Of a stretch of DNA of 64,000 nt, positions 1,443-21,017 are shown one piece after another; position 1 is the first letter of the stretch; each line of letters begins with the position of its first letter. Source of the DNA: Bdellovibrionales bacterium Ga0074137 (GTDB lineage Bacteria; Bdellovibrionota; Bdellovibrionia; Bdellovibrionales; JAMPXM01); NCBI GenBank assembly GCA_001464715.1, contig LNDT01000023.1:12385-76384 (forward strand). Reading direction: 5' to 3'. A program made the position numbers and the translations under genes. The notes under the pieces are model-generated. The model was given only the letters and a program-made list of their open reading frames with translations. It had not been told where the DNA came from and did not search any database.

Positions 1443-1473
1443 ATTTTTAAGAATGTGAATTTGGAGATTTGAA

Positions 1474-1941: not shown

Positions 1942-1947
1942 AGGAGT

Positions 1948-2020
1948 GGTACCTGGTTCCTTTTGCAGAGGATCCGCGGCACGAAGTGACGCGGGGTTTC
2001 TGCAAAAGGAACCTGGTACC
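1948..2020. repeat. Long imperfect inverted repeat (22-bp arms, one T-T mismatch) with a nested 5-bp stem; hairpin in the flgE leader/intergenic region
   Basis: Left arm ggtacctggttccttttgcaga (1948-1969) and right arm tctgcaaaaggaacctggtacc (1999-2020). Inner stem ccgcg (1974-1978) pairs with cgcgg (1990-1994). Confidence 0.8.
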
Positions 2021-2190
2021 CGACGAGAAATTATGAGTACGGGCTGGTCTCTTGGGCATGACTGTGACGATGGTGACTCCATCCGAGCTAGGCACAAGGG
2101 AAGCCCTCCCCGCGGTGGATTGACTGAAACTGCGGAAATTAAAGTGAATGAGCATGATGTTCATTCACGAATGTAACCTAGGAGGGGTTC

Positions 2191-3477: not shown

Positions 3478-3494
3478 GCCGTAAGTGACGCTGC

Positions 3495-3541
3495 GCCGGG
3501 TCCCAACCCGGCTTCGCTGCTTCACGCAGGTTTGCGTGAAG
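3495..3541 (+). terminator. Two tandem GC-rich hairpins downstream of flgE (putative terminator region)
   Basis: Hairpin 1 is gccggg-tcccaa-cccggc (3495-3512). Hairpin 2 is cttcacgca-ggtt-tgcgtgaag (3520-3541). There is no strong T-tract, so it may be a weak or Rho-assisted terminator. Confidence 0.5.
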
Positions 3542-3665
3542 ATTAACGCGTAATATTCTTTAGTTCTGAGCCGGGGTGAGCCTCGGCCGCGGAGTCCAGC
3601 ATCTCGTCAATGCCGATGGCCAAACCTTCTCTTGGGTGCGACCGTTTGTGTGACTCCGCGCCCTC

Positions 3666-4841
3666 CTAAATCAAACGGGTGTGTGCGCTGTAACTTCCAA
3701 ATGTTTTCGTTCGAGGCCATTTGTATTGATGCGATTCTTTCATTGTGACGGCATCAAAACTTAAAAATCCGCCATCAATTCCAAGGACGACGAGGCCTAG
3801 GCTATCTACTGCTGCAATCGACCTCGCGGGCGAATCAAAGTTGAGTATGGCATCAAGCTCTTGTTGCTTCGGGTTCCAAACTGCGACCTGCTTTAAATCC
3901 GGCAATGAAATCCAAATCCGACCATCCGCAGCCAAATCCAAACTCAAGACATTATTGAGGAACGCGGGCGACATCGGAGGGACTTCGAACTTGGATTCCT
4001 TTCGAGCAAGATCAAACTCGACGACACTTGTATTTTTCCAAAGGCCATGAAGTGTCCGTCCCGCGCACCCAAGAACTTTTGTCGGGCTAATCATTAGAAG
4101 GTGTTCCGATCCCAGAATGCTTTCGTCATCGAACGCGGGAAAAAGAGGACTTGAATGCACGTCGAATTTTGACGTTTCAAGATCAAAAACAACAAGCTGC
4201 GATTGGCTCGGACCGCGCATGGATCCCCCGCCACCAGCGATCGCGAAACTGGAGGACGTCAATCTCAAGATGTCGTGATTCGAACCAAAATTAAAGGGAA
4301 TCAAGCTTTCGAGTAAAAAGGTCTCGGCGTTGATGACCGCTAGAAAATTTTCGGTTCCCGCTGAGTTGATAACCGATGCGACAACGGTTTTTCCGTCGCC
4401 AGAAAATACGCCGTGACCATAAAAGAACAATCCGGGGGGAAGTTTTAGAAGATTAGTTTCTTTTCCTAACTTCCAATCGATCAGGCAGGTCTGATTCGAG
4501 TATCTTGGAAGAGCAAGTCCGATGTGACGTTCCGTTGGATGTGCTTCCAAAACATGGATGGGAACGTTGCTATCAATCTCTGTGATTCGTTTTTCGTTGA
4601 GCTCAAGACGAAAAGCCCGCCGATGAGAATAAGCCTCGACGTCATAAGGAATGTTGCCATTGTATCCACTTGGCCGCTTCGAAAAGCCTCCAACAAGGCT
4701 GAGCTGGTCACCAGCGATACTTTGGCGACTGGCAAATGGTCCAAGAAGTTTGGAGGCAAAGCTGCCAATGAGAGTAAATTTAAGCGCTTGCTCAATGTGG
4801 AGCCGGCGAGAGGGTGAAATTGGAGTACTGTTTTTTCCCAA
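3666..4841 (-). CDS. DUF1513-like beta-propeller protein with a probable Tat signal
   Basis: FFYGHGVFSGDGKTVVAS resembles the DUF1513 core motif. SRRLHIEQALKFTLIGSFA is a twin-arginine-like signal. The long ORF starting at ATG 4958 overlaps livF by 95 nt. An in-frame TTG at 4841 lies 6 nt after GGAG and is the more likely start (TTG 4853 is also possible). Confidence 0.55.
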   Translation of the reverse strand: MGKNSTPISPSRRLHIEQALKFTLIGSFASKLLGPFASRQSIAGDQLSLVGGFSKRPSGYNGNIPYDVEAYSHRRAFRLELNEKRITEIDSNVPIHVLEAHPTERHIGLALPRYSNQTCLIDWKLGKETNLLKLPPGLFFYGHGVFSGDGKTVVASVINSAGTENFLAVINAETFLLESLIPFNFGSNHDILRLTSSSFAIAGGGGSMRGPSQSQLVVFDLETSKFDVHSSPLFPAFDDESILGSEHLLMISPTKVLGCAGRTLHGLWKNTSVVEFDLARKESKFEVPPMSPAFLNNVLSLDLAADGRIWISLPDLKQVAVWNPKQQELDAILNFDSPARSIAAVDSLGLVVLGIDGGFLSFDAVTMKESHQYKWPRTKTFGSYSAHTRLI

Positions 4842-4863
4842 GTTTCGCTCCAACCTCGAACGA

Positions 4864-5616
4864 TCAGTGTCCGCCCAAATATGAATCAATAATTCTGGGG
4901 TCGCCCAAAAGATCTTTACCGCGGCCAGAAAAAGAGATCTTTCCGGTTTCGACGACATAGGCTCGGTCGGAAATCTTCAGAGCCATACGAGCATTTTGTT
5001 CCACCAAGAGAACGGTCATACCTTCGCTATTTATCTTTTTAATAATCTCGAAAATCTGCGCCACGATCAGCGGAGCAAGTCCAAGACTTGGTTCATCCAA
5101 TAAAAGTAGCGATGGCTTTGCCATCAGTGCGCGCGCGATCGCCAACATTTGCTGCTCGCCGCCGCTCAATGTACCGGCTTTCTGTTTGACGCGTTCTTTG
5201 AGTCGAGGAAACGAAGCGAAGCAAAGTTCAAGATCTTGCGCGATCTCTTCTTTGTCAGTCCGAGAGAAGGCGCCCATCTGCAAATTTTCAAGCACCGTAA
5301 GGTTAGGGAATACACCCCGGCCCTCGGGCGAGTGAGCGAGTCCGAACTTCACAATGCGGTGCTGAGGAACCGTCGCCAAATTCAAAACTTCGCCTGACTT
5401 GCTTTTGAACTCGACAGTACCTGTGTAAGGCACAAGCGATGAAACAGCTCGCAAAGTCGTTGTTTTACCGGCACCGTTTGCTCCGATGAGTGAAACGATC
5501 TCACCGGTTTTGACTTCAAACGAAACACTTTTAAGGGCCTGGATTCCGCCATAGCTGACGGCGAGGTCAGAAACTTTAAGAATATTTTCGCGTGCCGCCG
5601 TTGGTTTCGCTGTCAT
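4864..5616 (-). CDS. livF: Branched-chain amino-acid ABC transporter, ATP-binding protein LivF
   Basis: Walker A GANGAGKTTTL, signature LSGGEQQMLAIARAL, Walker B LLLLDEPSLGLAP, and a LivF-type C-terminus (DPRIIDSYLGG). Confidence 0.9.
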   Translation of the reverse strand: MTAKPTAARENILKVSDLAVSYGGIQALKSVSFEVKTGEIVSLIGANGAGKTTTLRAVSSLVPYTGTVEFKSKSGEVLNLATVPQHRIVKFGLAHSPEGRGVFPNLTVLENLQMGAFSRTDKEEIAQDLELCFASFPRLKERVKQKAGTLSGGEQQMLAIARALMAKPSLLLLDEPSLGLAPLIVAQIFEIIKKINSEGMTVLLVEQNARMALKISDRAYVVETGKISFSGRGKDLLGDPRIIDSYLGGH

Positions 5617-5619
5617 GCT

Positions 5620-6390
5620 TTAATCCTCTGTTCCAAGATAAGCGGCGATCACCGTTGGATTCGACTGAATTTCCGACGGAGTGCCTTCGGCGATGATGAC
5701 ACCGTGATCGAGAACGATAATCCGTTCACAAATACCCATGACCAGTTTCATATCGTGTTCGATCAAAAGGACGGCCAAATGAAAATCTTTTCGAATCTTT
5801 GCGATCGTCTTCATCAGCTCTTCAGTCTCGCTGTGATTCATTCCCGCCGCCGGCTCGTCGAGCAAAATCAGCCGTGGCTCGGTGGCTAAAGCGCGAACTA
5901 TCTCGAGTCGACGTTGTTCGCCGTAAGGGAGTCCGCCGGATTGAAGGTGCGCTTTATCTTGAAGATTAAAAATAGCGAGCAGTTCGAGCGCTCGCTCTTT
6001 CAGCCGAGCCTCTTCGATGAAGTGCCGTGGTGTGCGCAAGGCAGAGTCGAGCAGCGAATGGCGAGTGTGCTGGAGCCCGGCGACAATGACGTTGTCGAGA
6101 ACTGAAAGATCACGGAACAGGCGAATATTCTGAAACGTCCGAGTCATTCCCAATTTCGAAATTTGCCAAGGGCGAAGACGCTTAGTATCCACAGAGCGGA
6201 TCTTCACAACGCCTTCCGTGGGCTTGTAAACACTGGTCAGGCAGTTGAAACACGTGGTTTTGCCTGCGCCGTTAGGCCCAATCAGTCCGACAAGTTCACC
6301 TGATCGCAAGGTCAAATTGAATCCGTCGACGGCACAAAGACCGCCGAACTGCATTTTCATATTTGTCGCTTCAAGAAGAACTTCGCTCAT
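5620..6390 (-). CDS. livG: Branched-chain amino-acid ABC transporter, ATP-binding protein LivG
   Basis: Walker A GPNGAGKTTCFN, LPYGEQRRLEIVRALA, LILLDEPAAGMN, and a LivG-type C-terminus (VIAAYLG). Confidence 0.9.
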   Translation of the reverse strand: MSEVLLEATNMKMQFGGLCAVDGFNLTLRSGELVGLIGPNGAGKTTCFNCLTSVYKPTEGVVKIRSVDTKRLRPWQISKLGMTRTFQNIRLFRDLSVLDNVIVAGLQHTRHSLLDSALRTPRHFIEEARLKERALELLAIFNLQDKAHLQSGGLPYGEQRRLEIVRALATEPRLILLDEPAAGMNHSETEELMKTIAKIRKDFHLAVLLIEHDMKLVMGICERIIVLDHGVIIAEGTPSEIQSNPTVIAAYLGTED

Positions 6391-7445
6391 TGAGGTTTCT
6401 CACTCACCGAACGGCGCTGAAAAAAATCTCTCAGCGATCGCCACAGTTCGGGCGCTTCGCGAGTTCCCAGAATTCCAGACGGGCGAAGAATCATGAAGAG
6501 AATCAAAAGAAGTGAGTAAATCACCATTCGAAGATCGACGCCGGTCAATTGCTGAAGCTCGCGAAGAACCATCTCTGGAAGCACGGTAATGATAGCGGCC
6601 GCGATGACCGCGCCCGTAAAGCTTCCCATGCCTCCGAGGACGATCATGATAATAATGTCGACCGATTTCGTGAAGGTAAACGTGGATGGATTAAGATACT
6701 TCACTGAGTGAGCGAAAAGTGATCCACCGACGCCTGCGAAAAAAGCCGAAATCACAAACGCGCGAACTTTGATTTGAGTGATATTGATTCCCATCGCTTC
6801 AGCCGCAATCTCATCCTCTCGCACCGAAAGGAAGGCTCGGCCCTTGGCGGAGTGTACGATGCGCCAGAGAACGACGAACGTGATCACAGACCAAACAGAA
6901 GCCACCAAAAACTGCGCCGAAAATGGCGATAGACCCAATTCAGGCACCGCCTGCGCGGAGGGTATTCCATAGAGTCCGCGGGCGCCACCAACCGCTTCCG
7001 AGTTGAGAAGTACGACGCGAATAATTTCGCCAAAGCCAAGGGTAACAATCGCTAAGTAATCGCCGCGCAACCGAAGCGACGGAAGTCCTACAATAAGACC
7101 TGCAACAGCGGCCAGCGCACCGCCTGCGATTGGTAAAATCAGAAACTTGACCAGATCTGGCATTCCTGAAAGTTCCGGCCGAGTCACAAGCCAAGCTGAC
7201 GTGTAGGCTCCGACGGCCATGAATCCCGCGTGTCCCAGCGAAAACTGTCCCGTGAAGCCGTTGACCAGGTTGAGAGATGTCGCAAGCACGACGTTTGTTA
7301 AAATCAGAAGCATCACAAACTGAGTGTAGGGGTTGGCCGACGTGTCCAACAAAACTCCAACCAGCGAAAGCAAAACAATCGCTGCCATTGGTGCGGGAAT
7401 AGAACCAAGCGACTTAAACCGCGCGACTCGATCTTCGGTAGTCAC
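6387..7445 (-). CDS. livM: Branched-chain amino-acid ABC transporter permease LivM
   Basis: Polytopic membrane protein with GQFSLGHAGFMAVGAYTSA and RGDYLAIVTLGFGEIIR motifs. Its stop overlaps the livG start by 4 nt. Confidence 0.88.
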   Translation of the reverse strand: MTTEDRVARFKSLGSIPAPMAAIVLLSLVGVLLDTSANPYTQFVMLLILTNVVLATSLNLVNGFTGQFSLGHAGFMAVGAYTSAWLVTRPELSGMPDLVKFLILPIAGGALAAVAGLIVGLPSLRLRGDYLAIVTLGFGEIIRVVLLNSEAVGGARGLYGIPSAQAVPELGLSPFSAQFLVASVWSVITFVVLWRIVHSAKGRAFLSVREDEIAAEAMGINITQIKVRAFVISAFFAGVGGSLFAHSVKYLNPSTFTFTKSVDIIIMIVLGGMGSFTGAVIAAAIITVLPEMVLRELQQLTGVDLRMVIYSLLLILFMILRPSGILGTREAPELWRSLRDFFQRRSVSEKPQ

Positions 7446-8368
7446 TAAACTTTCTCCCTTGTTTGCGAGCCGAGAAGACCCGAAGGACGAAAGAGTAAAA
7501 TGACTATCAAGATGCCGAATGCAAGAGCGTCGCGGTAAGTGCTTGAGAGATATCCAACAACCATTTCTTCGCTGAGTCCCAAAATCACACCGCCAAGCAT
7601 AGCTCCCGGCAAACTTCCAATCCCGCCGAGGACCGCAGCGACGAACGCCTTAATTCCAAAAAGCATTCCCATGAGTGGATCGATCTTCGGGTACTTAAGT
7701 CCGACAAGAACCGAAGCAATTCCCGCAAGCGATGATCCAATGACGAAAGTGAAGGAGATAACTTGATCGACATTGATGCCCATGAGTCTTGCGACCATGG
7801 TGTTGGAGCTCACGGCGCGCATCGCTGTTCCAATTTTAGTCGCGTGAACCAGAAAGTGAAGTCCGATCATGACCAAAGTTCCGACGACGAGGATTGTGAT
7901 ATCGAGCGATCGAACCTCGACGCCTCCCAGTTGAAACACCGTGACGTCTTTTATGACTTCGGGAAAAAGCTTCGGATCAGCGCCGAAAATAATCTGACCC
8001 GAGTACTGGAGCAAAAGGCTAACTCCAATAGCAGTAATTAAAATGTTGAGCTTTGGAGCTTTTCTCAAAGGGCGGTAGGCGAGGCGCTCGATAGTAACAC
8101 CCAGAATAGAGCAGACAACGACTGCGGCTAAAAGCAGAGCGAAAAGCGCGCCAAAACCGGGGTGTTGATCCAATCCAAGACCCTTACCTGTGTAATAAGC
8201 GGCAAAGGCACCGACCATATAAACTTCGCTATGCGCGAAGTTTATCAACTGGAGAATTCCGTAAACCATGGTGTAGCCGAGAGCAATCAGGGCATAAATG
8301 CTGCCGAGGCTAATGCCATTGATCAAATGCTGGATAAATTCTTGAGCACTACTTTGATCCAAACGCAA
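7445..8368 (-). CDS. livH: Branched-chain amino-acid ABC transporter permease LivH
   Basis: TTG start. INGISLGSIYALIALGYTMVYGILQLINFAHSEV is the LivH N-terminal signature. There is a 1-nt stop/start overlap with livM. Confidence 0.88.
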   Translation of the reverse strand: MRLDQSSAQEFIQHLINGISLGSIYALIALGYTMVYGILQLINFAHSEVYMVGAFAAYYTGKGLGLDQHPGFGALFALLLAAVVVCSILGVTIERLAYRPLRKAPKLNILITAIGVSLLLQYSGQIIFGADPKLFPEVIKDVTVFQLGGVEVRSLDITILVVGTLVMIGLHFLVHATKIGTAMRAVSSNTMVARLMGINVDQVISFTFVIGSSLAGIASVLVGLKYPKIDPLMGMLFGIKAFVAAVLGGIGSLPGAMLGGVILGLSEEMVVGYLSSTYRDALAFGILIVILLFRPSGLLGSQTREKV

Positions 8369-8439
8369 ATCTCCGAGGTTTCGGACTAAGTAGAAAACAT
8401 GTTTGGACCTGCGTCAAAGGTGAACACGTCTTAGGGAGC

Positions 8440-9909
8440 TTAAGTCTCGTTTTCCGATTCAATTTGAATACGGTTTAGTTCGGCTAAATCAGCGTTTGCG
8501 AACTTTTCAAAAAACGCGCTCATTTTGTTGAGCTGGCTACGCTTCCATCGATGAAAATTCAGTGGGCAAAGCGGAAATGTGATGTGAATGCGGCGACTCG
8601 GCGACTCATTAACAATAAAGTGTGATTTTGCTACATTGACGACATACAGGGACCCATCCGCGGGAAGGTGGTAGGGTTTGCCGTCGACAAACAAAAGGCT
8701 GCGAGAGTCTGTGAGAACCGGAAAATGAAGCGTCACACTGAAGGGACCATCGATGTGCTCGGCCATCCGAAACCCTGACTCGGCCACTAAAATTCGCCCA
8801 CGAGTCAGATAGCACTCGGGTTCGACGAAATCGTAAAGTTCTTTAAAAAGGTCCCCGACGGAATTCCTTTTTAGAAACTCCGCCGGCTTCCGTTTCATAC
8901 TGGCTTCACCCCTGGGCGTGATGAAAAAAAGCTGCTCCATGGCATCGTAGAACGGATTCGCTTCATCGGAATACTGAAGCCCCAAGCCGGTGTACTTCTC
9001 GTACCCATCTTTTGCGACAGGAGGGTGGTCATTCAGTGCCTTGATTGCAATTTTCTTGTATTTTCCAACGTCAAATTTTTTTTTCGAGACTTTCAGGACA
9101 TCGAAGTCTTGTTTTAGAATTCTGCTTTTAAGTTCAGAGAGTTCAACGGTCGCAATAGCGGAGGAATCTGCAGATGGCCGGTCGTGTTCGCGGTGTTGTC
9201 CCTCGCTGGTGTTCATCATCCGATCCCAAATAGAAAAAAATATTCCGAAATTTACAGATTCATTCTGATGGTGGCGCGTATGAAATTCCGGCGTCACCGT
9301 CCACCACAAGGAAGGAGTTTTTTTTATCGCTAAGGACCAAAACTGGCTTCCGAGGTGGACGAAGATGGGAAGAAACATTGAAAATATGCCGGCGGTTTTC
9401 ATCACGCCCTGATGAACGGGAACGACAAAATAAATTGGGATCAGCCATAGCATATTGATGGCCGCTTCGATGGGACTCAAAAGGAAAGTACTGACCGGAC
9501 CGGGATACTTCTGGGTATGGTGCACGGAATGGACCGGTCGATAGAGGAATCGTGAATGAAGAGCTCGATGGGCCCAGTAGAGAAAAAAATCATGATAAAG
9601 CAGTAAGATCGGGAGGCTTAAATAATACCACAGCAGACTGTAGTCGCTTTTGTTGATGTAAATTTTCACCCACGGAGAAAAGATCGGAAGATCCAAAACC
9701 GCAAGGATAGTGGCGAAGATCGCCAGCGAAGTTATCGAAATAAAATATTCTTTCAAAACACCACGGAGCCTTTCCCCCCCGGGCTCACCTAAAATATGCC
9801 ATCGAAAGAACGACCTATCTGTAAAAAAAAGAAGCGTAAGAGCTGGCACGAGAAGAGCGTGATAGATCAGCAGTTGGTATTTAAAGTAGTAGAGGAAGAG
9901 TGGTGTCAT
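8440..9909 (-). CDS. Fusion protein: N-terminal fatty-acid hydroxylase/sterol-desaturase-family (di-iron, His-box) domain plus C-terminal aspartyl/asparaginyl beta-hydroxylase-like (LpxO/OlsC-type) cupin domain
   Basis: His boxes HRALH, HSVHH and HTRHH..NFG..WDRMMN lie in a membrane-embedded N-terminal half. The C-terminal half has MAEHIDG...TLHFPVL...LFVDGKPYHLP..VVNVAKSHFIVNES.SRRIHITF, which matches the Asp/Asn-hydroxylase fold pattern. ATG 9909 overlaps the upstream stop (ATGA). The longer ORF starting at 9954 is less likely. Confidence 0.7.
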   Translation of the reverse strand: MTPLFLYYFKYQLLIYHALLVPALTLLFFTDRSFFRWHILGEPGGERLRGVLKEYFISITSLAIFATILAVLDLPIFSPWVKIYINKSDYSLLWYYLSLPILLLYHDFFLYWAHRALHSRFLYRPVHSVHHTQKYPGPVSTFLLSPIEAAINMLWLIPIYFVVPVHQGVMKTAGIFSMFLPIFVHLGSQFWSLAIKKTPSLWWTVTPEFHTRHHQNESVNFGIFFSIWDRMMNTSEGQHREHDRPSADSSAIATVELSELKSRILKQDFDVLKVSKKKFDVGKYKKIAIKALNDHPPVAKDGYEKYTGLGLQYSDEANPFYDAMEQLFFITPRGEASMKRKPAEFLKRNSVGDLFKELYDFVEPECYLTRGRILVAESGFRMAEHIDGPFSVTLHFPVLTDSRSLLFVDGKPYHLPADGSLYVVNVAKSHFIVNESPSRRIHITFPLCPLNFHRWKRSQLNKMSAFFEKFANADLAELNRIQIESENET

Positions 9910-11486
9910 AGCGCATTCGCCAGCCGACCTTTGCTTGCGCTGAGTTCGGAGCAAAGATCTTTTTCATAAGTTTTGATCCACTGGTTCTCGAGCGTTCGGA
10001 TTCGCGCGTGAGTCAAACTGTCGATGGTGCCGCTTCGAATCTCGGCCAGAATTTGCTCGTGATCCATTCCCAGATTTCTCAGGCGAGGATATTGAAAGAT
10101 GGAGCCAATGGCGCTCTTGTTCATTCCGTTTTGCTTCAAACGGTTAATAACATTTCTTTGGATTTTGAGTGCTTTCGGGAAGTCCATCGCCGAATGCTTC
10201 CAGTAGTACGGAGAAAAGCTGACGGTTTCAAAGCCATATTTTTCGGGGAATCGCGAATAGTCGGCGTAGTCGATCGCGACTTTATCCAGTTTTTCTGAAT
10301 ACGGGAACAAAGATAGCACCGGCCAAAACGAAAGATCGAAGACGCGTGAGGTGATAACCCAGTCGAGAGTTTCGCTGATGCTTTCTTCGCTCTCGCCGGG
10401 GAGGCCAATAATGAACGAGCCCTTCATGATTGTTCGGTCGCCGTGTTTCTGTCGCGACTGCACAAACAATTCTTTTACCATTTCAGGTGGAGTGCCTTTT
10501 CCCGCTCGTTTGGCCACAGCGGCATTTAAGCTTTCGATACCCCAGAAGAGGCCTCGGGCCCCGGACTCGATCATTAAATCAAGAGTTTCAGGAAATTTAC
10601 AGGCGACGTCCACTCGCGCGTAACCGACCCATTCAATCTTGAAGGGAAGACTGAGTAGAGTTTCGCAGACCGCATTCACTTTGCTGCGGGTGTCGTTGAA
10701 GCAATCATCACAGAACTGATAAATTGTTGTTCCGAACATTTCATAGTTCCGAATCATCTCGGCACGCAGGGCTTCATTTGTTTGGCGAATGCTTCCTTGC
10801 TTTTCGAAGTGACAGAACTTGCAGTTGTAAAGACAGCCTTTGGCAATTTCAATCGGCAAAGACTCTTCTGGTTGAATGGCGTCTGTCCGGTCCCAAAGAA
10901 TACTTTGGACTGTTTTTGTTTCTGTTCCAAAGTTGGACTCAGTTAAATATTTCGCACCGTCGACAGTTGAAAAGGGAAGCGCCTCGCCGAGCTTCATTTT
11001 CGTCACCAAAGTAAGGAAAAATGATTCGGCTTTTCCAATAACGAAAAAATCAAACAGAGGCCGGATCTCGGGACGTTCCAGTCCGTAGAGCGCTTTTACT
11101 CCGCCAAGGACAACGGGAACGTCGCTCCGATGTGTCTTCCGAGAGACCACACTTCTAACTTTGCCGACAAAATCTTTGAGCTCTTCAGCGCTGTGGCACC
11201 AAAGAAATCCTGCACGGTAGTCAACGATGAAGGTGCTATCGAGCTGGGGCAAGCGAGTGTCGATACCCAAAAATGTACCTGAAAAACCGACAAATAAAGT
11301 TTCTGGTCCAACCGCTGATTCCAGAATATCGAAGAAGTTTTGGAGTTTCGTAAAGTGATCGATGACAACACAGGTAAGACCTTCAGCCCGCAGCATTGAG
11401 GCCAGAACGTAAGGCCCGATGGAACGACCCCAGCCAGGCTCGCCGTCAAGCTGGCTCACATCATTGAGGAGGACAACATGTGCCAT
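9906..11486 (-). CDS. B12-binding-domain (class B) radical SAM enzyme
   Basis: CxxxCxxC cluster motif IAKGCLYNCKFCHF. The N-terminal ~170 aa look like a Rossmann/B12-binding domain (VVLLND...LTCVVIDHF...VVLGGV). 526 aa. The start overlaps the upstream stop (TGATG). Confidence 0.8.
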   Translation of the reverse strand: MAHVVLLNDVSQLDGEPGWGRSIGPYVLASMLRAEGLTCVVIDHFTKLQNFFDILESAVGPETLFVGFSGTFLGIDTRLPQLDSTFIVDYRAGFLWCHSAEELKDFVGKVRSVVSRKTHRSDVPVVLGGVKALYGLERPEIRPLFDFFVIGKAESFFLTLVTKMKLGEALPFSTVDGAKYLTESNFGTETKTVQSILWDRTDAIQPEESLPIEIAKGCLYNCKFCHFEKQGSIRQTNEALRAEMIRNYEMFGTTIYQFCDDCFNDTRSKVNAVCETLLSLPFKIEWVGYARVDVACKFPETLDLMIESGARGLFWGIESLNAAVAKRAGKGTPPEMVKELFVQSRQKHGDRTIMKGSFIIGLPGESEESISETLDWVITSRVFDLSFWPVLSLFPYSEKLDKVAIDYADYSRFPEKYGFETVSFSPYYWKHSAMDFPKALKIQRNVINRLKQNGMNKSAIGSIFQYPRLRNLGMDHEQILAEIRSGTIDSLTHARIRTLENQWIKTYEKDLCSELSASKGRLANAL

Positions 11487-12331
11487 CAGTGCTCCTCCGA
11501 GATTGATTTTCGTTTTGGGTAGGGTTTCGAAATCAATTTTATAATTAGCGACCCGAGATCAAGTTCGCTTTTTTGGATTCCAAAAGAGGCGCGGTCTGGT
11601 TCGTGGTGGTGGTTGTTGTGGTAGCCCTCACCGAAACATAAAATTCCAAGCAATCGAAGGTTCACGCTGTTGTCACCAGTTTCGAAATTTCGGTATCCGA
11701 ATTGCCGTGAGTGACAGAAGAAATTTACAACGGCGACTCCGTGAAAGCTCAGAATGCTGGGTATAAGAAAGGCGTAGGTCGCAAACCGAGCGTCGATAGA
11801 AAATAGAGCTAAAGTCACCGACAGATAGATGAAGAAGTAGTTTCTATGCAGAAAACGATGAAATCGGCTTTTGACCAAATCCTCGCAGGACCTAACGGGC
11901 AGGCTCTCGCGATCGATAGACTTGAGCCAACCTAAGTAGCTCGATGCAAAGCCGTGAATCGGACTGTGGCGATCTCCACTCTCATCGGTGAATTTGTGGT
12001 GCCAGCCACGATGGATGGAGGCCCACAGAATGGGACTGCCTTGGCCCGCCAGACATGTCAGAACTGCGAGAAAACGTTCGACGCTTGGATGGACTGCAAA
12101 ACTGCGGTGAGAAAAGAGTCGATGAGCTGACACAGAAATACCAACACCATAGATAATGGAATAACCCACGGCGACAAGCAGCAGGTCTGAGACATGTACT
12201 CCAAGGTGAGCAATTAAAAAAGCCGCAGCAACATGTCGAACAAGGTGGAAAATAAACAGATTGTTACCGTAGGCGGTCGCACTTTTTTCCACTTTGAGTC
12301 TCACGAGGCCCTGATTTTCGTGAGGCCGCAA
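11486..12331 (-). CDS. Acyl-CoA/acyl-lipid (delta-9-type) fatty-acid desaturase, paralogue B
   Basis: Three His boxes: SAHRLFSHRSF, HRGWHHKFTDESGDRHSP and GEGYHNNHHHEP. An alternative GTG start at 12304 would give a GTGA overlap with the upstream stop. Confidence 0.85.
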   Translation of the reverse strand: MRPHENQGLVRLKVEKSATAYGNNLFIFHLVRHVAAAFLIAHLGVHVSDLLLVAVGYSIIYGVGISVSAHRLFSHRSFAVHPSVERFLAVLTCLAGQGSPILWASIHRGWHHKFTDESGDRHSPIHGFASSYLGWLKSIDRESLPVRSCEDLVKSRFHRFLHRNYFFIYLSVTLALFSIDARFATYAFLIPSILSFHGVAVVNFFCHSRQFGYRNFETGDNSVNLRLLGILCFGEGYHNNHHHEPDRASFGIQKSELDLGSLIIKLISKPYPKRKSISEEH

Positions 12332-13047
12332 ATGGTGGCTAGAAAGTACCCGGCATCAAACTCGCCTCGCTTCACAGCAAAATTAGGATTGCTGGGGGCG
12401 GCGTGATGATTGTTGTGTAGCGCTAGACCAAAAGTAAGAAAGCTAAGCGCTTTTTGGTTGTTAGAATCATCCGGCGTTTCAAAATTGCGATATCCGCTTT
12501 TCGAATGGCAAAACGTACTGACAACGGCGTTTTGATGGTAGGTGAGGATCATGACGGTCAATAAAGTCATAGCGGCCGTGGTGTCGATCAGGCCAATGAC
12601 GAGAAGGACGGCGTAATTTAAGGGAAGATAAAATTTGTGGGTAAGGCGAAAGTATCGCTCCCCTCGCAACTGTCGCACGGAAAGCAGGACCATCGAGGTA
12701 GCTTTTCGCAAGTATCCGATGTGGCTATTGTAGGCACCACCATTTCGAGGTGATGTGAAGTCACTTGGCGTGTCAGCCATCGGATGATGATAGCCAATAT
12801 GAAGTGATCTAAAAAAAAGAGGACTGCCGTTGAGGGTTAGTAACCCTAGGCTATAGAGAATTTTTTGAAGTGCGCTGGGCAGTTTGAAATGCTGATGGCA
12901 AAGCTCTCGATGATAACCAATCTCAAGCCCCAGCCCTCCTAGGAGGATCCAAAGTGGAACGACCGCCACCCCATAGACTTGCGACGGTCCAAAATAGATC
13001 AACCCGCCAAGCCACAGAATGTGGGCGGGAACTATTAAGCTATACAT
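12301..13047 (-). CDS. Acyl-CoA/acyl-lipid (delta-9-type) fatty-acid desaturase, paralogue A (divergent)
   Basis: His boxes GYHRELCHQHF, HIGYHHPMADTPSDFTSP and GLALHNNHHAAP. ATG 13047 follows a GGGAGGGG RBS. The maximal ORF extends to ATG 13110 but has no RBS there. Confidence 0.8.
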   Translation of the reverse strand: MYSLIVPAHILWLGGLIYFGPSQVYGVAVVPLWILLGGLGLEIGYHRELCHQHFKLPSALQKILYSLGLLTLNGSPLFFRSLHIGYHHPMADTPSDFTSPRNGGAYNSHIGYLRKATSMVLLSVRQLRGERYFRLTHKFYLPLNYAVLLVIGLIDTTAAMTLLTVMILTYHQNAVVSTFCHSKSGYRNFETPDDSNNQKALSFLTFGLALHNNHHAAPSNPNFAVKRGEFDAGYFLATICGLTKIRAS

Positions 13048-13202
13048 TTCCCCTCCCGACTCACTCTTGCGGACGCCTTGCGCGTCAATACATCTAAATG
13101 GTACCGTCATGTGTAGTTACTGTCAAAGTTCCGAGGCCCACCTAATGTATAGCTTAGGGTTTAATGGAGCTGGGGAAATTGCATTTTACAAGTAGGTGAA
13201 TT

Positions 13203-14213
13203 TTGAAATCACGTTTCCGATGGTTCGATTTTTTCCTGCTAGCCTGTGTCGTCATTTCAGGAATTTTTATATTTACCTACCTGACGCGGACCCCGACTAA
13301 GAACGTCGTCGTACAGCAAGCACCGACGGTGGCGCCCGGCGCTTTATCGCCAGTGAAACCTGAACTGCTGAAGCCCGAGCCGATCGCGCTCGAAATTCCT
13401 GCGTTAGACTTTAAGCCTGCGAACTTGGCCGCAGTTCTTGAAGATCCTAAAAACCTGAAATTTAAGTCGGGTCAAATTCAACAAACTCGACGATGCAGTC
13501 GTACTGCCAATTGGGGACCCGGGGCCTTCGGCATAACTTCCAACGTCGTCGCTGAAGGTTTCAGTAGCAACCGGCTGAATATTGTCTTCGGGCCGGGAAA
13601 CAAAAATTGCTTCAAGACAGGCGAGGTTGTTCAGTTTGTCGCAATGGAAGAAAACCCAAAAGCTGACCGCCCGTATTTTCGCTTGCTCGGCGAGACAAAA
13701 ATTAGAGCTATTTTCGAAGTGCCGCCCGCGGACGTTCCGGAGGAATTGCTGAAAGCCGGCGGATTGAACCGGAATTCCTACATGGAATACCTCGCTGGTG
13801 AGGCTACCGACATTGTCTTTTTCATCGACCCTATCGTAAAGGCGAGCTCCGCTCGAACGAAGAAAACCACAATCGTCTTTCCTCGAATTGAGATTGTCAC
13901 AGCGGCCGAGCTTCAGACGTTTAAGGCCAGTTATAAAAACCTGAAATCGATCGACCTTCGCACCTCCGCTGCGGCAACTCCTTTGAATCTAAAATTAGAT
14001 CCCTTTAACCCCAAGGTCACTCCGAGCCGCTTGTCAGAAGTTTCACTTCCGCCATCTTGGATGGAGCTTGTATCGGCGAACAACTCGAGGCGTGATCAGC
14101 CGATTTTGGTCGTATGCGATGAAAATCACGAGGCTCGCTGCTTGGCTTTGTTGTCGGCGCTGGCGACGATGAATTTATCGAACGTCAACGTCACTTACAC
14201 CCAGTTCTACTGA
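13203..14213 (+). CDS. Membrane-anchored hypothetical protein with a weak C-terminal rhodanese-like segment
   Basis: TTG start after AGGTGA. N-terminal TM helix WFDFFLLACVVISGIFIFTYL. The C-terminal QPILVVCDENHEARCLALLSALATMNLSNVNV resembles the end of a rhodanese domain (weak match). Confidence 0.45.
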   Translation: MKSRFRWFDFFLLACVVISGIFIFTYLTRTPTKNVVVQQAPTVAPGALSPVKPELLKPEPIALEIPALDFKPANLAAVLEDPKNLKFKSGQIQQTRRCSRTANWGPGAFGITSNVVAEGFSSNRLNIVFGPGNKNCFKTGEVVQFVAMEENPKADRPYFRLLGETKIRAIFEVPPADVPEELLKAGGLNRNSYMEYLAGEATDIVFFIDPIVKASSARTKKTTIVFPRIEIVTAAELQTFKASYKNLKSIDLRTSAAATPLNLKLDPFNPKVTPSRLSEVSLPPSWMELVSANNSRRDQPILVVCDENHEARCLALLSALATMNLSNVNVTYTQFY

Positions 14214-14873
14214 TTCGCTGATCTGCTTTTGGAACTCGGCCTTAAACGCGGTTTCAGAGTGAAGTTGCCTATTCAGAAGCTCTTGTTTCCGATGCACTTG
14301 TTTAAGAGTTCCTGATCGTATGTGAATTGGGTGGTCGTGGAGGAGAGAGCCTGCGAGGCTTTTCTCACCAGGGAAAAAAGACTCTGATCCGGCTGGTATC
14401 AAGGCTTCAGTCACCCAATGATATCGGGTCAGCTCGGGCATCATGCGAAGAAAAGCTTTGAGCCCATGGCGCTCGTGACGGCTGCGCATGGGGGCCGCAA
14501 AAAAATGACGGTAGAGTCCAAGGTTCTCGCCGATCGTCACAAGTCTCGCGTAACAAGCAATGACGCCGTTGTCGGTCACACGGAGCTCGTAGCCTGGACC
14601 TGCGGACTTTAAATTCATCAGCGTCCAGAATGGGAATTTGTCCCAAATATACATGCAAGCAATGGCGGACAGGCGTCCTTCCAGGAAAGCGCCAACCATG
14701 ACTCGTCTCGAATTTAGGTTGGAAAGGTATTTTTCGCTGAGCTCTGAAAACAAACTCAAATATGAATCAGTGATTGGAGTTTTCATGAGGTCGGATCGAG
14801 ATTTGGCGAGATTGATGACTGAATTTTTATCATTGAGGTTCAGCACTCGCGTCGAGAGAGGAGCTGGTTTCAT
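14175..14873 (-). CDS. Hypothetical protein (possibly acyltransferase-like fold; unassigned)
   Basis: ORF on the same strand as the upstream 14891-15319 gene. Internal ATG 14873 avoids a 94-nt overlap with that gene. The 3' end overlaps the convergent 13203-14213 ORF by 39 nt. I recognise no diagnostic motif. Confidence 0.4.
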   Translation of the reverse strand: MKPAPLSTRVLNLNDKNSVINLAKSRSDLMKTPITDSYLSLFSELSEKYLSNLNSRRVMVGAFLEGRLSAIACMYIWDKFPFWTLMNLKSAGPGYELRVTDNGVIACYARLVTIGENLGLYRHFFAAPMRSRHERHGLKAFLRMMPELTRYHWVTEALIPAGSESFFPGEKSLAGSLLHDHPIHIRSGTLKQVHRKQELLNRQLHSETAFKAEFQKQISESVELGVSDVDVR

Positions 14874-14890
14874 ACCGGTGACTTTCGAAA

Positions 14891-15319
14891 CTACGTTTCT
14901 ATTTCGCGTGCTGAGACGACGTATTTGAACCCAGCCTTCTTGAACTGAGTCCGGTTGAAGACGCCTGTGAGGCGACGTTCCCATGCTATGAAGCTATCTT
15001 TATCTTTGAATTCGAGAACCCATTTTGTTTGCTGAGGTGAGAATGCAAACGACTGCTGTCTTAGTGCGGACGTGCCCAGAAATTCAGAATTGAGTTCTCG
15101 CAGCGCGATCTCATTTTCCCATTCTCGTCGGGCCCGAGCGAATTCGGCTTCTGTCAATTCTTTTGGGAAAAGACAATTAATCTCGCACACAAAACCTGAG
15201 GTGGGCGCTAATCCAGTTGTTTCGCGTCTCGAAATAAATCCCAAGCCCAGGTGTCCAATGACCGCTGCCGCCAAAAGGCCAAGACCATCACCGACAAGTT
15301 TTCGACGACTATTGGACAC
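14891..15319 (-). CDS. Hypothetical small protein with an N-terminal hydrophobic/Tat-like segment
   Basis: MSNSRRKLVGDGLGLLAAAVIGHLGLG followed by a soluble ~100-aa domain. No recognisable family. Confidence 0.4.
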   Translation of the reverse strand: MSNSRRKLVGDGLGLLAAAVIGHLGLGFISRRETTGLAPTSGFVCEINCLFPKELTEAEFARARREWENEIALRELNSEFLGTSALRQQSFAFSPQQTKWVLEFKDKDSFIAWERRLTGVFNRTQFKKAGFKYVVSAREIET

Positions 15320-15510
15320 GTTAATCCCCCAGAATGAAACGCGATAGCAACATAGCTACCCCTTATGATAGCACGACAGATCTTAACAAAGTTCAAAGTT
15401 TTTGACTTCAGATTCTATCAGACGCTCATCGCGCTCGCACCGCTGCATTTTGGCCAGACAAACGTCTGTGTGTCTCGGTTTGAGTCGGTCATGACCTCGT
15501 CAAATCGATC

Positions 15511-16686
15511 TTAAGGAGTGATTGTCTTAATGAAGCGGTTCACTTTACCGTCGACTTGAACGACGACAGCACTCTTTGTCGCGTCTCGTTTTTCGTTGAT
15601 CGTGATGACGCCGGTGACGCCGACAAAGTTTTTAGTTTTTGCGATTTCGTCGCGAATATTTTTAGGAGTGATTTCGGTCGTTCGCTCCATCGCTTCGATC
15701 AAAATATTGGCCGCATCGTAGCCAAGGGCTCCGAGACCATCGGGAGTCTTACCTTTGTACGCTTCGCGGTACTTTCGAATGAACTCAGTGACGACTGGCT
15801 CTGTGCTTTCGGTTGTGTAGTGGTTTGAAAAGTAACTTCCTTTGATCGCGTCCTGCCCGAGTTCAGAAAGTTTTTCCGAATCCCAACCATCACCACCTAA
15901 AAGCGGAATCGACATTCCCAACTGACGCGTCTGGCGGGCGATCAATCCAACTTCAGTGTAATAGCCAGGAACAAAAATCGCCTCAGGGTTTTTACCCTTA
16001 AGTTGTGTGAGCTGTGCTTTGAAATCCGTTTCGCCAGCTTGGTAAGATTCGTCGGCGACAATAGTTCCACCCAGTTTCTTAAATTCCGCAGCGAAGACAT
16101 CGGCAAGACCTGTCGAGTAGTCAGACTTCACGTCTCTTAGAATTGCGACGCGTTTTTTCTTGATCTCAAGCGCCGCGAATTTTGCCATCACGAGGCCTTG
16201 AAAAGGATCGATGAAGCAAACTCGAAAAATGTAGTCGCCAACTTCCGTGACCTTTGGGTTTGTCGAAGATGGTGTAATCATCGGAACTTGATATTGCTGA
16301 GCGACCGGCGCGGCCGCCAGCGACCGACTTGATGCGACTTCGCCAAGCACCGCAACAACTCGGTCTTGAGTGACGAGACGCTGCACAGCCGCGCGCGCCT
16401 CTTCCGGTTTTCCCTGGTTGTCGAGCGAGATGAGGCGAAGCTGCTTTCCTTTGACTCCGCCCAACTTATTTTTCTCTGCAAACGCGAGTTTTACACCCTC
16501 GGACGTCGACTGGCCAAACGTTGCTTCGGATCCACTGAACGAACCGTATTCGCCGACAACGATCTCGTTCGTATTTTCTGCTTTTTTCGTGCAAGCAGCG
16601 CCCGCAAGCAAAACGAGAGCAAGGCCGAAAGACAAAACGGAAGGCAAAATGAAAGAACGTCGTGCGAACGAACGGAAATTAGTCAC
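15511..16686 (-). CDS. Branched-chain amino-acid ABC transporter substrate-binding (LivJ/LivK-type) lipoprotein
   Basis: GTG 16686 lies 6 nt after GGAGG. Signal peptide plus LLAGAAC lipobox. The body (IVVGEYGSFSGSEATFGQS...PMITPSSTNPKVT...FVPGYY) is typical of type-I periplasmic Leu/Ile/Val-binding proteins. The upstream ATG at 16818 would overlap pfkA. Confidence 0.8.
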   Translation of the reverse strand: MTNFRSFARRSFILPSVLSFGLALVLLAGAACTKKAENTNEIVVGEYGSFSGSEATFGQSTSEGVKLAFAEKNKLGGVKGKQLRLISLDNQGKPEEARAAVQRLVTQDRVVAVLGEVASSRSLAAAPVAQQYQVPMITPSSTNPKVTEVGDYIFRVCFIDPFQGLVMAKFAALEIKKKRVAILRDVKSDYSTGLADVFAAEFKKLGGTIVADESYQAGETDFKAQLTQLKGKNPEAIFVPGYYTEVGLIARQTRQLGMSIPLLGGDGWDSEKLSELGQDAIKGSYFSNHYTTESTEPVVTEFIRKYREAYKGKTPDGLGALGYDAANILIEAMERTTEITPKNIRDEIAKTKNFVGVTGVITINEKRDATKSAVVVQVDGKVNRFIKTITP

Positions 16687-16784
16687 AGGTATCCTCCAGG
16701 ATAGGAGCTTTAACCCTACACGCCGCAGGGCTTTCGGGGGACCTGCGAACGCACGTTTTCGCGCCGCGACACCGTTCGACAGCG

Positions 16785-17834
16785 TCAGTTCGAAAGAGTT
16801 TGGGCCATGCGAATCCACTCATCGGGAACGCGTTTATGTTTTCCTATGACGTCTCGAAGGGGCACTCCCGAAATGCGGCCGCGCGCCCACGCCATCATCG
16901 CATCACAATAGCCGCGCCTCAAAGCTTCGACGGCCGCCGTTCCCATACGAGACGCTAAGTTTCGGTCGAACGCCGAAGGAGCTCCGCCGCGAAGGACGTG
17001 ACCGAGAACGCAAACTTTTGCTTCGAAGCCGCTTTTTTTACGAATACTTTCCGCGAGGTCGTAGGCCCGTCCGGGCTTTCGACCTTCGGCCGCAATTAGA
17101 ATCGAACTTTTTTTCCCAACCGCCATACCGCGACGGATGTGATCGATGGCGTCGTCGACGGTCACTGGGTTATCGGCGAAGAAAATTTCTTCAGCACCAC
17201 CGGCGAGTCCTGTTTCCAAAGCTATAAAGCCAGAGTCTCGGCCCATCACTTCGACGATAAAAAGTCGGTCGTGCGAGTCGGCTGTGTCGCGAATTCGGTC
17301 GATCGCTTGAACGGCCGCATTCACGGCTGAATCAAATCCTATTGTCGCTTCTGTTCCATGAATGTCGTTGTCGATCGTGGCCGGGATTCCGATGATTGGG
17401 ATTTTGTGCTCGGTCCAAAGAAGTCTTGCGCCAGTGAAAGACCCGTCGCCGCCAATGCACACCAAGGCGTCTAAGCCCGCGGATTTAATTTGAGCCGCCG
17501 CGCGGGCCCGCACGCTGGCCTCTTTAAATTCCGGAAGGCGCGCAGTTTTTAGAATAGTGCCGCCGCGCTGAAGGATATTTCCCATGCCCCGCGAATCCAT
17601 CGGAAGCCACTCGGCGCCCAATATTCCTTTGTAGCCATGAACGGCGCCCGTGATCTGAAGCCCGTGATGAAGTGCCGACCTGACGACCGCTCGAATGGCC
17701 GCGTTCATTCCAGGAGCGTCGCCGCCACTGGTGTAGACCCCGATGTGCTTGAGCATAGGAGTTTGGCCCGAAGGCATGAAGCGCTCAAGGTTTGCTAGGG
17801 GATCTGTCGCCACGGATTCAGGTTTGACGGTCAT
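16785..17834 (-). CDS. pfkA: ATP-dependent 6-phosphofructokinase
   Basis: Motifs GVYTSGGDAPGMNAAIRAVV, IGGDGSFTGA, GIPATIDNDI and MGRDSGFIAL. Confidence 0.9.
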   Translation of the reverse strand: MTVKPESVATDPLANLERFMPSGQTPMLKHIGVYTSGGDAPGMNAAIRAVVRSALHHGLQITGAVHGYKGILGAEWLPMDSRGMGNILQRGGTILKTARLPEFKEASVRARAAAQIKSAGLDALVCIGGDGSFTGARLLWTEHKIPIIGIPATIDNDIHGTEATIGFDSAVNAAVQAIDRIRDTADSHDRLFIVEVMGRDSGFIALETGLAGGAEEIFFADNPVTVDDAIDHIRRGMAVGKKSSILIAAEGRKPGRAYDLAESIRKKSGFEAKVCVLGHVLRGGAPSAFDRNLASRMGTAAVEALRRGYCDAMMAWARGRISGVPLRDVIGKHKRVPDEWIRMAQTLSN

Positions 17835-20898: not shown

Positions 20899-21017
20899 GG
20901 GACACTTTTCACCGAAGCTGACGTTTCATAATGAGACAAAGTTGCTGAATTCACCTGGACCTACAGCCGCTTCCAAGACTGGCCGATAGTAGAGGAGTGT
21001 TAAATGGCGGAGGCTTG

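Follow-up and report, generated by a model that had tools for sequence, protein, structure and literature searches.

A compact gene unit encoding two short desaturases, a radical SAM enzyme and a so far unique FA_hydroxylase::AspH-like fusion on a Bdellovibrionales metagenomic contig

In a 64-kb stretch of contig LNDT01000023.1 of Bdellovibrionales bacterium Ga0074137 (hereafter the window, in whose coordinates all positions are given), we found four consecutive minus-strand open reading frames (ORFs), at 8440-13047, packed with GTGA, TGATG and ATGA stop/start overlaps. They encode two desaturase-type proteins (DesA and DesB), a radical S-adenosylmethionine (SAM) enzyme (rSAM) and a fusion protein (HydF) in which an FA_hydroxylase-type di-iron domain is joined to an AspH-like 2-oxoglutarate (2OG)/Fe(II) oxygenase domain. 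All five catalytic domains belong to known superfamilies and none to a characterised family. What is new is the fusion, so far unique, and a rare, uncharacterised module of rSAM, AspH-like and desaturase genes that also occurs on phage-like DNA. We propose, with somewhat less than even confidence, that the four proteins tailor a membrane-anchored amphiphile with an amino-acid-like polar part, by oxidative and radical steps; everything inferred here is drawn from the sequence of a single metagenomic contig.

DesA: 12301..13047, minus strand, 248-aa short membrane di-iron desaturase-type protein
DesB: 11486..12304, minus strand, 272-aa short desaturase-type protein related to stearoyl-CoA delta-9 desaturase
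rSAM: 9906..11486, minus strand, 526-aa radical SAM enzyme
HydF (fusion gene): 8440..9909, minus strand, 489-aa FA_hydroxylase::AspH-like fusion
HydF N-terminal half, residues 1-255: 9145..9909, minus strand, FA_hydroxylase-type di-iron domain
HydF C-terminal half, residues 256-489: 8440..9144, minus strand, AspH-like 2OG/Fe(II) oxygenase domain

Three of the five catalytic domains come from integral-membrane di-iron superfamilies, and all five carry intact metal-ligand motifs. To our knowledge, the characterised enzymes of the FA_desaturase and FA_hydroxylase superfamilies all have a hydrophobic chain or ring as their substrate. Cpz10, the closest structural match of the AspH-like half of HydF, and proline hydroxylases act at carbons of amino-acid-like moieties (PMC9814697 for Cpz10). 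Taken together, these two properties make the simplest substrate an amphiphile whose hydrocarbon tail is in the membrane and whose polar, amino-acid-like part is at the surface, for which an acylated amino compound, an aminolipid, and a lipid A-like or other envelope lipid would be the candidates.

The HydF fusion and the layout of the unit

The N-terminal half of HydF matched the Pfam family FA_hydroxylase (PF04116, residues 116-249; 91.4 bits versus 31) and carries the His boxes HRALH, HSVHH and HTRHH together with about four hydrophobic segments. Its sole match in NCBIfam was the ornithine-lipid hydroxylase OlsE (NF052566), at 19.6-22.6 bits and thus below the cut-off of 475, and a sequence search of the PDB with this half returned no match. 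The C-terminal half scored below the cut-off of Asp_Arg_Hydrox (PF05118; 12.9 bits, E = 0.1, versus 22.6). However, 44 of its 51 aligned homologues match this family (best E = 3.5e-11), and the closest stand-alone homologue, in the Bdellovibrionales locus L004 (10852-11529), lies just over the cut-off at 23.3 bits. Four residues (R117, H130, D132 and H175 in domain numbering) do not vary across the alignment, and R185 and H187 hardly do. The AlphaFold2 (AF2) model of this half (pLDDT, the predicted local distance difference test, 93.5) has a 2OG oxygenase fold with HxD...H plus RxH, for which Foldseek ranked Cpz10 (7v4f) first (E = 3.9e-14, template modelling (TM) score 0.86 on the target), followed by L-proline hydroxylases and human AspH. 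With phmmer, the window's domain aligned to Cpz10 at E = 2.6e-6, with H-x-D, H and R-x-H aligned, and the family profile did so at E = 2.3e-23. The fusion of a di-iron hydroxylase to an Asp/Asn-hydroxylase-like oxygenase, as claimed in an earlier reading of this DNA (the original prediction), is thus supported by the Pfam threshold on its first side and by family and structure on its second, where the window sequence by itself falls short of the Asp_Arg_Hydrox threshold.

The AspH-like family is small. An exhaustive HMMER search of 1.84 billion protein representatives returned 212 proteins at E <= 1e-3, of which 49 reach E <= 1e-10, nearly all relatives being stand-alone proteins of about 200-330 aa, and all but one of the listed relatives are without hydrophobic segments and hence soluble. 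No second FA_hydroxylase::AspH-like fusion occurred among these representatives, and a word-indexed search of 5.8 billion proteins returned HydF itself and five FA_hydroxylase-only proteins at 28-33% identity; the nearest homologue of the FA_hydroxylase half sits in an unrelated gene context. Because the relatives of the AspH-like domain are otherwise soluble, its fusion to a membrane enzyme is a specific hint that the substrate of HydF is located at the membrane. A further member of the AspH-like family, P0212 (538 aa), carries the domain at its C-terminus together with DUF3854 and D5_N (primase/helicase-associated) domains, which suggests either a further setting on mobile elements or a gene call that merged two genes.

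Two known systems resemble HydF in part. Cpz10 is a non-heme Fe/2-oxoglutarate beta-hydroxylase of caprazamycin biosynthesis, a soluble 182-aa homodimer that acts on an aminoacyl-glycyluridine (PMC9814697). Its structures (PDB 7V4F and 7V4M) show a small AspH-like cupin core like that of the HydF C-terminal half, at only 21-23% identity, and its gene lies in an actinomycete nucleoside-antibiotic cluster, whereas the HydF domain shares its polypeptide with a membrane di-iron hydroxylase and is coupled to a rSAM. The second likeness, at superfamily level only, is to OlsE (FA_hydroxylase) taken together with OlsC and LpxO (AspH family), whose two superfamilies HydF joins. LpxO and OlsC are AspH-family hydroxylases of lipid A and ornithine-lipid acyl chains, respectively. 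Neither the OlsC nor the LpxO model matched HydF, and no olsA/olsB or lpx genes were found nearby.

Within the unit, direct reading of the sequence placed the junctions and flanking signals as follows:

12304..12301, minus strand: GTGA overlap of the DesA TGA stop and the DesB GTG start
11488..11484, minus strand: TGATG overlap of the DesB stop and the rSAM ATG, 1 nt shared
11492-11498, minus strand: GGAGGAG, the Shine-Dalgarno (SD) sequence of rSAM, 5 nt 5' of its ATG
9909..9906, minus strand: ATGA overlap of the rSAM stop and the fusion-gene ATG, 4 nt
13126-13098, minus strand: promoter-like TTGACA-17 nt-TACCAT ahead of the first gene, a consensus match only (consensus scan, 10/12 matches)
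8363..8439, minus strand: 77-nt gap between HydF and livH, with a weak 5-bp hairpin at 8372-8385 overlapping the livH SD

This reading confirms the four ORFs and all three junctions as originally described. Separate gene calls by the Joint Genome Institute (JGI) on the same contig (metagenome 3300002461, contig AADWTP_10000500; NCBI WGS LNFM01) give the same four products (248, 272, 526 and 489 aa) with the same overlapping starts, and the exact sequences of all four proteins are present in a public protein collection. The boundary at 8440 also held, while that at 13110 had been set too far upstream: the ATG at 13110 is an upstream in-frame codon of the DesA ORF, and it is the ATG at 13047 that is preceded by a strong SD (GGGAGGGG) and was chosen by JGI. 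As the promoter-like site would fall partly inside an ORF starting at 13110, the first gene more likely starts at 13047. The TTG codons that open the longest ORFs at 12331 and 9954 are not likely to be real starts.

The neighbouring liv genes are equally packed, as their junctions at 7445 (1 base in common), 6387-6390 (4 nt in common) and 5616/5620 (3 nt apart) show. Overlaps are therefore ordinary in this genome, and those of the unit support one operon with possible translational coupling; the stoichiometric expression earlier deduced from them was an over-reading. A terminator scan and inspection of the sequence revealed no strong intrinsic terminator inside the unit or between HydF and livH, and transcripts possibly read through from HydF into livHMGF. 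The four genes accordingly look like one compact same-strand transcription unit. A cobalamin or SAM riboswitch, or another RNA element, was rejected, as the window gave no Rfam match, and no tRNA was found in it.

The desaturases and the radical SAM enzyme

DesA (52.5 bits) and DesB (61.1 bits) both passed the cut-off of Pfam FA_desaturase (PF00487; 29.7) and are 36% identical to each other, in line with the two divergent desaturases of the original prediction, whose quoted motifs (both sets of His boxes and the CLYNCKFC of the rSAM) are all present. The boxes are HRELCH, HIGYHH and HNNHH in DesA, which has two hydrophobic segments, and HRLFSH, HRGWHH and HNNHHH in DesB; hydrophobic 19-mers were found in both. 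Neither protein reached the cut-off of the NCBIfam bacterial DesA model (NF049918; 50.4 bits for DesA and 83 for DesB, versus 400). Residues 24-237 of DesB aligned by phmmer to the human/mouse SCD1 structures 4zyo and 4ymk (E = 1.8e-15 and 2e-14), His box on His box, with a one-residue insertion in box 2 (HRGWHH against HRAHH).

Compared with SCD1 (4ZYO, 4YMK) and bacterial DesA-type enzymes, the window desaturases share the HRxxSH-type box 1 and the HNxHH box 3. They are much shorter, however (248-272 aa versus about 320-390 aa), and their box 2, HxxxHH, has the one-residue insertion. Both fall in a small subfamily of 250-285-aa proteins apart from the 365-380-aa Bdellovibrionota 'fatty acid desaturase' proteins, to which DesB is 24-32% identical, and this subfamily sits in clusters with a rSAM or an oxygenase rather than as stand-alone housekeeping genes.

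The rSAM passed the cut-off of Pfam Radical_SAM (43.5 bits versus 29.5). Its cluster-binding motif CLYNCKFC (CxxxCxxC; 10812..10835, minus strand) comprises C218, C222 and C225, which are invariant across a 26-sequence alignment of the family. The AF2 model (pLDDT 90.2) consists of an N-terminal Rossmann (B12-binding-like) domain, a rSAM barrel and a helical C-terminal domain, without a transmembrane segment. In Foldseek, TsrM came first (E = 1e-16), then OxsB, then AprD4, MgmA, CysS and TokK (E values from 1e-16 to 1e-10 overall, and from 1e-16 to 1e-13 for TsrM and OxsB). The same succession of Rossmann N-domain, CxxxCxxC barrel and C-terminal domain is found in TsrM, OxsB, TokK, CysS, MgmA, AprD4 and PhpK, although identity to class B structures is 11-16% and the TM score on the query only 0.45-0.59. 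As modelled, the rSAM has class B (cobalamin-dependent type) architecture. The earlier assignment to this class is upheld by the Radical_SAM threshold, the motif and the fold, while the Pfam B12-binding match stays below threshold, and a precomputed match to that family (PF02310) is present in a minority of the rSAM family members. Cobalamin binding and methyl transfer, for which no sequence motif is diagnostic, are candidate activities.

In NCBIfam, the best match was the PhpK subfamily of P-methyltransferases, TIGR04479 (101.9 bits versus 600, E = 2.8e-29, residues 194-480). HpnJ (66.6 versus 577.6), the ladderane-type TIGR04072 (50.8 versus 360) and BchE (41.2 versus 481) likewise remained below their cut-offs, and the Tes model gave no match, so that the parallel with lipid-modifying rSAMs, offered in the original prediction, is not borne out for any of these families. 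The best structural target coverage was that of AprD4. AprD4 is a non-methylating dehydratase without cobalamin that works with an SDR-type reductase; SDRs accompany several relatives of the rSAM, and not the window rSAM itself. With no named family cut-off reached, PhpK as the best partial match and AprD4 as the best coverage, the 'methylated or cross-linked acyl chain' proposed earlier is a guess. Phosphonate or phosphinate chemistry, considered because of PhpK, was rejected, since no phosphoenolpyruvate mutase occurred in the neighbourhoods read with Pfam and the scores are far below the cut-off. In the protein collection, the cluster that holds the window rSAM is represented by a 154-aa ENA fragment, which is why the homology search listed no 100% match for it.

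Conservation of sub-modules, phage-like copies and surroundings

The rSAM family comprises more than 344 matches, with a best identity of 54%, mostly from metagenome-assembled genomes (MAGs) of Bdellovibrionota and with up to three copies per locus. These relatives indicate an uncultured member of the Bdellovibrionota as the source of the window. Among GTDB species representatives, no relative with at least 38% identity was found in cultured Bdellovibrio; the top matches were all MAGs, after which came matches at about 25%. Our census of neighbourhoods covered tens of the more than 340 family members, many of them on short contigs, and the fractions of co-occurrence given below are therefore lower bounds.

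The complete four-gene set was found in no other locus examined. None of the six closest rSAM relatives with inspected neighbourhoods lies beside a desaturase (0/6); two are without any cluster partner, one is accompanied by an SDR alone and half (3/6) lie with AspH-like genes:

P0002: rpe, rSAM and an aromatic-amino-acid-lyase family (HAL/PAL-type) gene
P0007: no recognisable partners
P0011: SDR only
P0003: AspH-like, rSAM, AspH-like, SDR and two GT2 genes
P0014: a 458-aa AspH-like protein and a B12-like protein
P0015 (locus L083): three rSAMs, three AspH-like proteins and TauD

Over the loci of close relatives, an AspH-like gene of the family of the HydF C-terminal half lies near the rSAM in 13/27 and a short desaturase in 6/27; L169 and L170 additionally combine distant rSAMs with a short desaturase. 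The loci in which a short desaturase accompanies a member of the rSAM superfamily are the window, L002, L004, L011, L017, L174, L169 and L170. In L002/L088, the rSAM gene (8001-9590) overlaps a stand-alone AspH-like gene (9587-10114) by 4 nt, the same coupling as in the window. In a rough neighbour-joining tree of the rSAMs, the desaturase-associated members are scattered across deep branches, which indicates that the linkage of short desaturase and rSAM is old or repeatedly selected. The conserved unit thus consists of sub-modules only, rSAM with AspH-like and short desaturase with rSAM. Co-conservation of the whole set, which the original prediction would have expected, fails, as the fusion is a singleton and the closest rSAM relatives are without a desaturase; it is the pairwise associations that recur.

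These pairs bear on whether the four genes have any joint function. Were DesA and DesB two housekeeping desaturases for membrane fluidity that happen to lie beside unrelated genes, common gene overlaps and a four-gene set not conserved elsewhere would be just what this genome should present. We find such a coincidence scarcely credible, however: the 250-285-aa subfamily is distinct from the 365-380-aa Bdellovibrionota desaturases, short desaturases appear repeatedly in clusters with a rSAM or an oxygenase, and the adjacency of rSAM and AspH-like genes is far above chance, because the AspH-like family is so rare.

All-against-all clustering of the proteins of 56 loci brought out further recurrent partners: PP-loop (SGGxDSE, QueC-like) and SDR-like proteins, the unknown families F5, F7 and F12 (210-290 aa, with HxD...H-like motifs) and the unknown families A3, F16 and F26 (180-230 aa), which flank desaturase genes. 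None of these six unknown families matched Pfam, NCBIfam or the PDB. The idea that A3, F16 and F26 are N-acyltransferases (GNAT or N-acyl amino acid synthase) was dropped on that ground and because hhalign between the groups was negative. The window may hold an A3 member of its own:

14175..14873, minus strand: possible accessory gene, 232 aa, matching L088 4471-5127 by phmmer (E about 6e-6)

Its product is a weak member of A3, and the L088 protein in turn matches L004 12957-13529 and L019 7198-7824. A3 proteins (about 190-232 aa) are encoded immediately upstream of short desaturases in L002/L088 and L004, and two genes upstream of DesA in the window. Since a plus-strand gene (13203-14213) intervenes, membership of the 14175-14873 protein in the four-gene unit is tentative.

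The contexts of three close desaturase relatives are varied:

L168 (locus of the nearest DesB relative): desaturase beside two PhyH oxygenases
L169: AMP-binding, SDR, BKACE, GNAT, ATP-grasp and a distant rSAM
L170: three B12-type rSAMs, a heme-oxygenase-like di-iron protein, a methyltransferase and GT17

Such variable clusters resemble biosynthetic gene clusters, with their PP-loop ATPase, SDR, ATP-grasp, AMP-binding, BKACE, methyltransferase, glycosyltransferase, TauD, PhyH and heme-oxygenase-like di-iron genes and their wealth of paralogs (up to three rSAM and three to five AspH-like genes per locus). They would suit a secondary metabolite that diffuses freely, for instance a modified amino acid, a nucleoside or a lipidated small molecule, with the membrane enzymes oxidising a hydrophobic side chain. 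The nearest solved homologue of the AspH-like domain is, moreover, the caprazamycin enzyme Cpz10, and the structural neighbours of the rSAM include the natural-product enzymes TsrM, OxsB, AprD4, CysS and TokK. Yet the scaffold-building enzymes of such a pathway (a non-ribosomal peptide synthetase, a polyketide synthase or a ligase) are absent within 10 kb on either side of the unit, and three membrane-integral domains with a tethered oxygenase point to a membrane-resident substrate. We therefore hold a diffusible metabolite to be unlikely, though with appreciable weight.

Some loci also recall peptide pathways. In L004 (MEPU01000011.1, a Bdellovibrionales locus), the stretch 6464-17231 encodes an HTTM (gamma-carboxylase-like) membrane protein and two rSAMs, one of class B type and one small and MoaA/Tes-like, besides an SDR, a short desaturase-like protein and AspH-like proteins in at least four paralogous copies. 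In L168, a minus-strand run at 625-7184 with two PhyH proteins, two PP-loop (SGGLDSE) proteins and ORFs of 54 and 64 aa has a phage-like layout or that of a cluster for a ribosomally synthesised and post-translationally modified peptide (RiPP). Class B rSAMs and Fe/2OG hydroxylases are known to co-operate in the proteusin (polytheonamide) pathway, and the substrate of the unit might by analogy be a ribosomal peptide or protein, C-methylated and beta-hydroxylated at Asp/Asn as in proteusins and epidermal growth factor domains, with the membrane enzymes as unrelated neighbours; the HTTM protein and second rSAM of L004 and the small ORFs beside the PhyH genes of L168 would fit. The unit itself, however, has no precursor-like small ORF, protease, transporter or leader-recognition domain; its genes abut, leaving no room for a RiPP precursor, for which we found no candidate ORF. 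As the AspH-like domain is also covalently joined to a lipid-type hydroxylase, its closest structure is a small-molecule enzyme and the desaturase-rSAM linkage recurs in eight loci, a peptide substrate appears very improbable.

Several contigs were recorded twice, once from a MAG and once from a metagenome (L002 = L088, L004 = L090, L013 = L089). L088, which carries the LNFM01 prefix of the window's metagenome project, had been considered as a second cluster of the window's genome; being identical to the MAG LNEB01 contig and differing in GC content (0.37 versus 0.515), it belongs to a different organism.

Copies of the module also occur on phage-like DNA. Contig L174 (JAAURC010000090.1), binned as Richelia sp. 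RM2_1_2, has a GC content of 0.32, unidirectional small genes and one gene related to those of PA5oct-type jumbo phages (E = 4e-30), and is probably mis-binned viral DNA. Its positions 4741-15760 hold, in a row, F12, F12, F16, desaturase, rSAM, SDR-like, F7, AspH-like and F7 genes, adjoining GTP cyclohydrolase I and phosphoribosyltransferase genes; the same families are present in the Bdellovibrionales loci L002, L011 and L017. Relatives of the rSAM, 29-33% identical, also lie on four viral contigs of IMG/VR. One of these contigs encodes in addition a Nol-like carbamoyltransferase, an aminotransferase and a phage methyltransferase. Against the genomes of 50,697 isolate phages, tblastn gave no match to the window rSAM or the AspH-like domain, and DesB found weak matches at 27-29% identity. 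With PHROG matches weak as well, we rejected the notion of a widespread phage gene. T4-like cyanophages have long been noted to carry islands in which several small genes for 2OG-Fe(II) oxygenases, PhyH-like proteins and carbamoyltransferases lie together, still unexplained (PMC3037559); in gene composition, the module on L174 and the IMG/VR contigs offers a thematic parallel to them.

Surface-modifying auxiliary genes are common on such elements, which leads to a further explanation, that the unit is an accessory island for surface variation acting on an envelope glycoconjugate (lipid A/lipopolysaccharide, or a surface polysaccharide with acyl substituents). The company kept by the relatives, namely SDR/epimerase-type proteins, two GT2 proteins, NodU/Nol-type carbamoyltransferases and a DegT-like aminotransferase, would agree with it, as would the action of LpxO and OlsC on acyl chains. 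The window's unit contains no sugar-handling gene, however, and the absence of relatives from cultured Bdellovibrio leaves a link to the lipid A of B. bacteriovorus unsupported; we considered that link because the lipid A of strain HD100 may carry hydroxylated or unsaturated acyl chains, and retain it as a weak alternative. A glycoconjugate substrate is, on balance, improbable.

The surroundings of the unit are chromosomal: the window contains flagellar hook genes, an HU gene, a PFK gene, a branched-chain amino-acid ABC transporter and a dcw cluster with mraW, ftsI, murE, murF and mraY. The liv-type ABC transporter is seemingly split, its binding-protein gene (15511-16818, minus strand) lying about 7 kb from livHMGF (4864-8368, minus strand), and between the two parts are the four-gene cluster, two unknown minus-strand genes and one plus-strand gene. 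The total GC content of the cluster stretch is 0.46-0.49 versus 0.51, and third-position GC of the cluster genes is within about 1.3 standard deviations of the window mean; as third-position GC does not deviate despite the lower total GC, a recent horizontal insertion that split the liv operon is not supported. The plus-strand gene (13203-14213) encodes a 336-aa protein with an N-terminal hydrophobic segment and without a family match, and converges with the minus-strand gene at 14175-14873, their 3' ends overlapping by 39 nt. Elsewhere in the window, a plus-strand gene (20997-22931) encodes a subtilase (Peptidase_S8, with a fervidolysin-like prodomain) with a C-terminal PilZ domain, an unusual combination that suggests a c-di-GMP-binding protease.

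A possible membrane-anchored substrate

For the proposed tailoring of a membrane-anchored amphiphile, we infer the substrate class, the order of the steps and the chemistry of the rSAM, as follows. DesA and DesB, as O2-dependent SCD1-type di-iron enzymes, would introduce double bonds or related oxidations into the hydrocarbon tail, and the FA_hydroxylase half of HydF would hydroxylate or desaturate the same hydrophobic part. By fusion, an otherwise soluble AspH/Cpz10-type oxygenase would be tethered to the membrane, where this 2OG/Fe(II) enzyme may hydroxylate the polar, probably amino-acid-like, part. The rSAM, soluble and presumed to be translationally coupled to the oxygenase, could perform a radical step at an unactivated carbon, which would be a C-methylation if cobalamin is bound, or alternatively a dehydration or rearrangement, like the reaction of AprD4.

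Several observations weigh against this proposal. Cpz10, the closest solved relative of the AspH-like domain, acts on a soluble aminoacyl-nucleoside. The contexts of the relatives (SDR, GT2, carbamoyltransferase, PP-loop ATPase, ATP-grasp, AMP-binding, TauD and PhyH genes) are like variable secondary-metabolite or glycan-tailoring clusters, not core lipid pathways, and neither in the unit nor nearby did we find an acyltransferase, acyl carrier protein, olsA/olsB, lpx or spt gene. No equivalog threshold of any lipid enzyme was reached, including OlsE, DesA and HpnJ, and the Pfam B12-binding family (PF02310) scored 17.4-20.8 bits on the rSAM, below its threshold of 32.1. Finally, the four-gene set and the fusion are restricted to one metagenomic contig. 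The 'multiply modified acyl chain' with which the original prediction summed up the unit therefore survives in part: enzymes typical of hydrophobic chains are present, while methylation and cross-linking are unsupported, and the AspH-like domain, with its soluble relatives and the polar substrate of Cpz10, does not require a plain acyl chain.

A literature search for pathways in which B12-type rSAM and desaturase genes act together retrieved no more than a preprint on archaeal lipids, and one for Bdellovibrionota biosynthetic clusters nothing specific. A bolder reading, speculative and rather unlikely, is that the window holds the membrane-adapted form of an uncharacterised mobile module (a rSAM of class B type with several different 2OG oxygenases, together with a short SCD-like desaturase, an SDR and a PP-loop enzyme) shared by Bdellovibrionota and large phage-like elements. 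Its product might be an amphiphile of a new class, heavily oxidised and perhaps C-methylated, such as an envelope lipid or a hydroxylated N-acyl amino compound, and the fusion would couple oxidation of the tail to that of the head group.

The pair of rSAM and AspH-like genes is rare and rich in paralogs; most of its copies come from uncultured Bdellovibrionota, and some lie on phage-like contigs. The one-off fusion, taken with the two desaturase paralogs, is at present the best guide to the location of the module's substrate. The four genes make up a compact construct that could be expressed to find the product. Should that product not be related to lipids, the locus would be merely another orphan tailoring cluster. 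If it is a new envelope lipid or lipidated metabolite, the unit would add to the chemistry that class B rSAMs perform on lipids, and may have a bearing on the surface biology of predatory bacteria and their phages.

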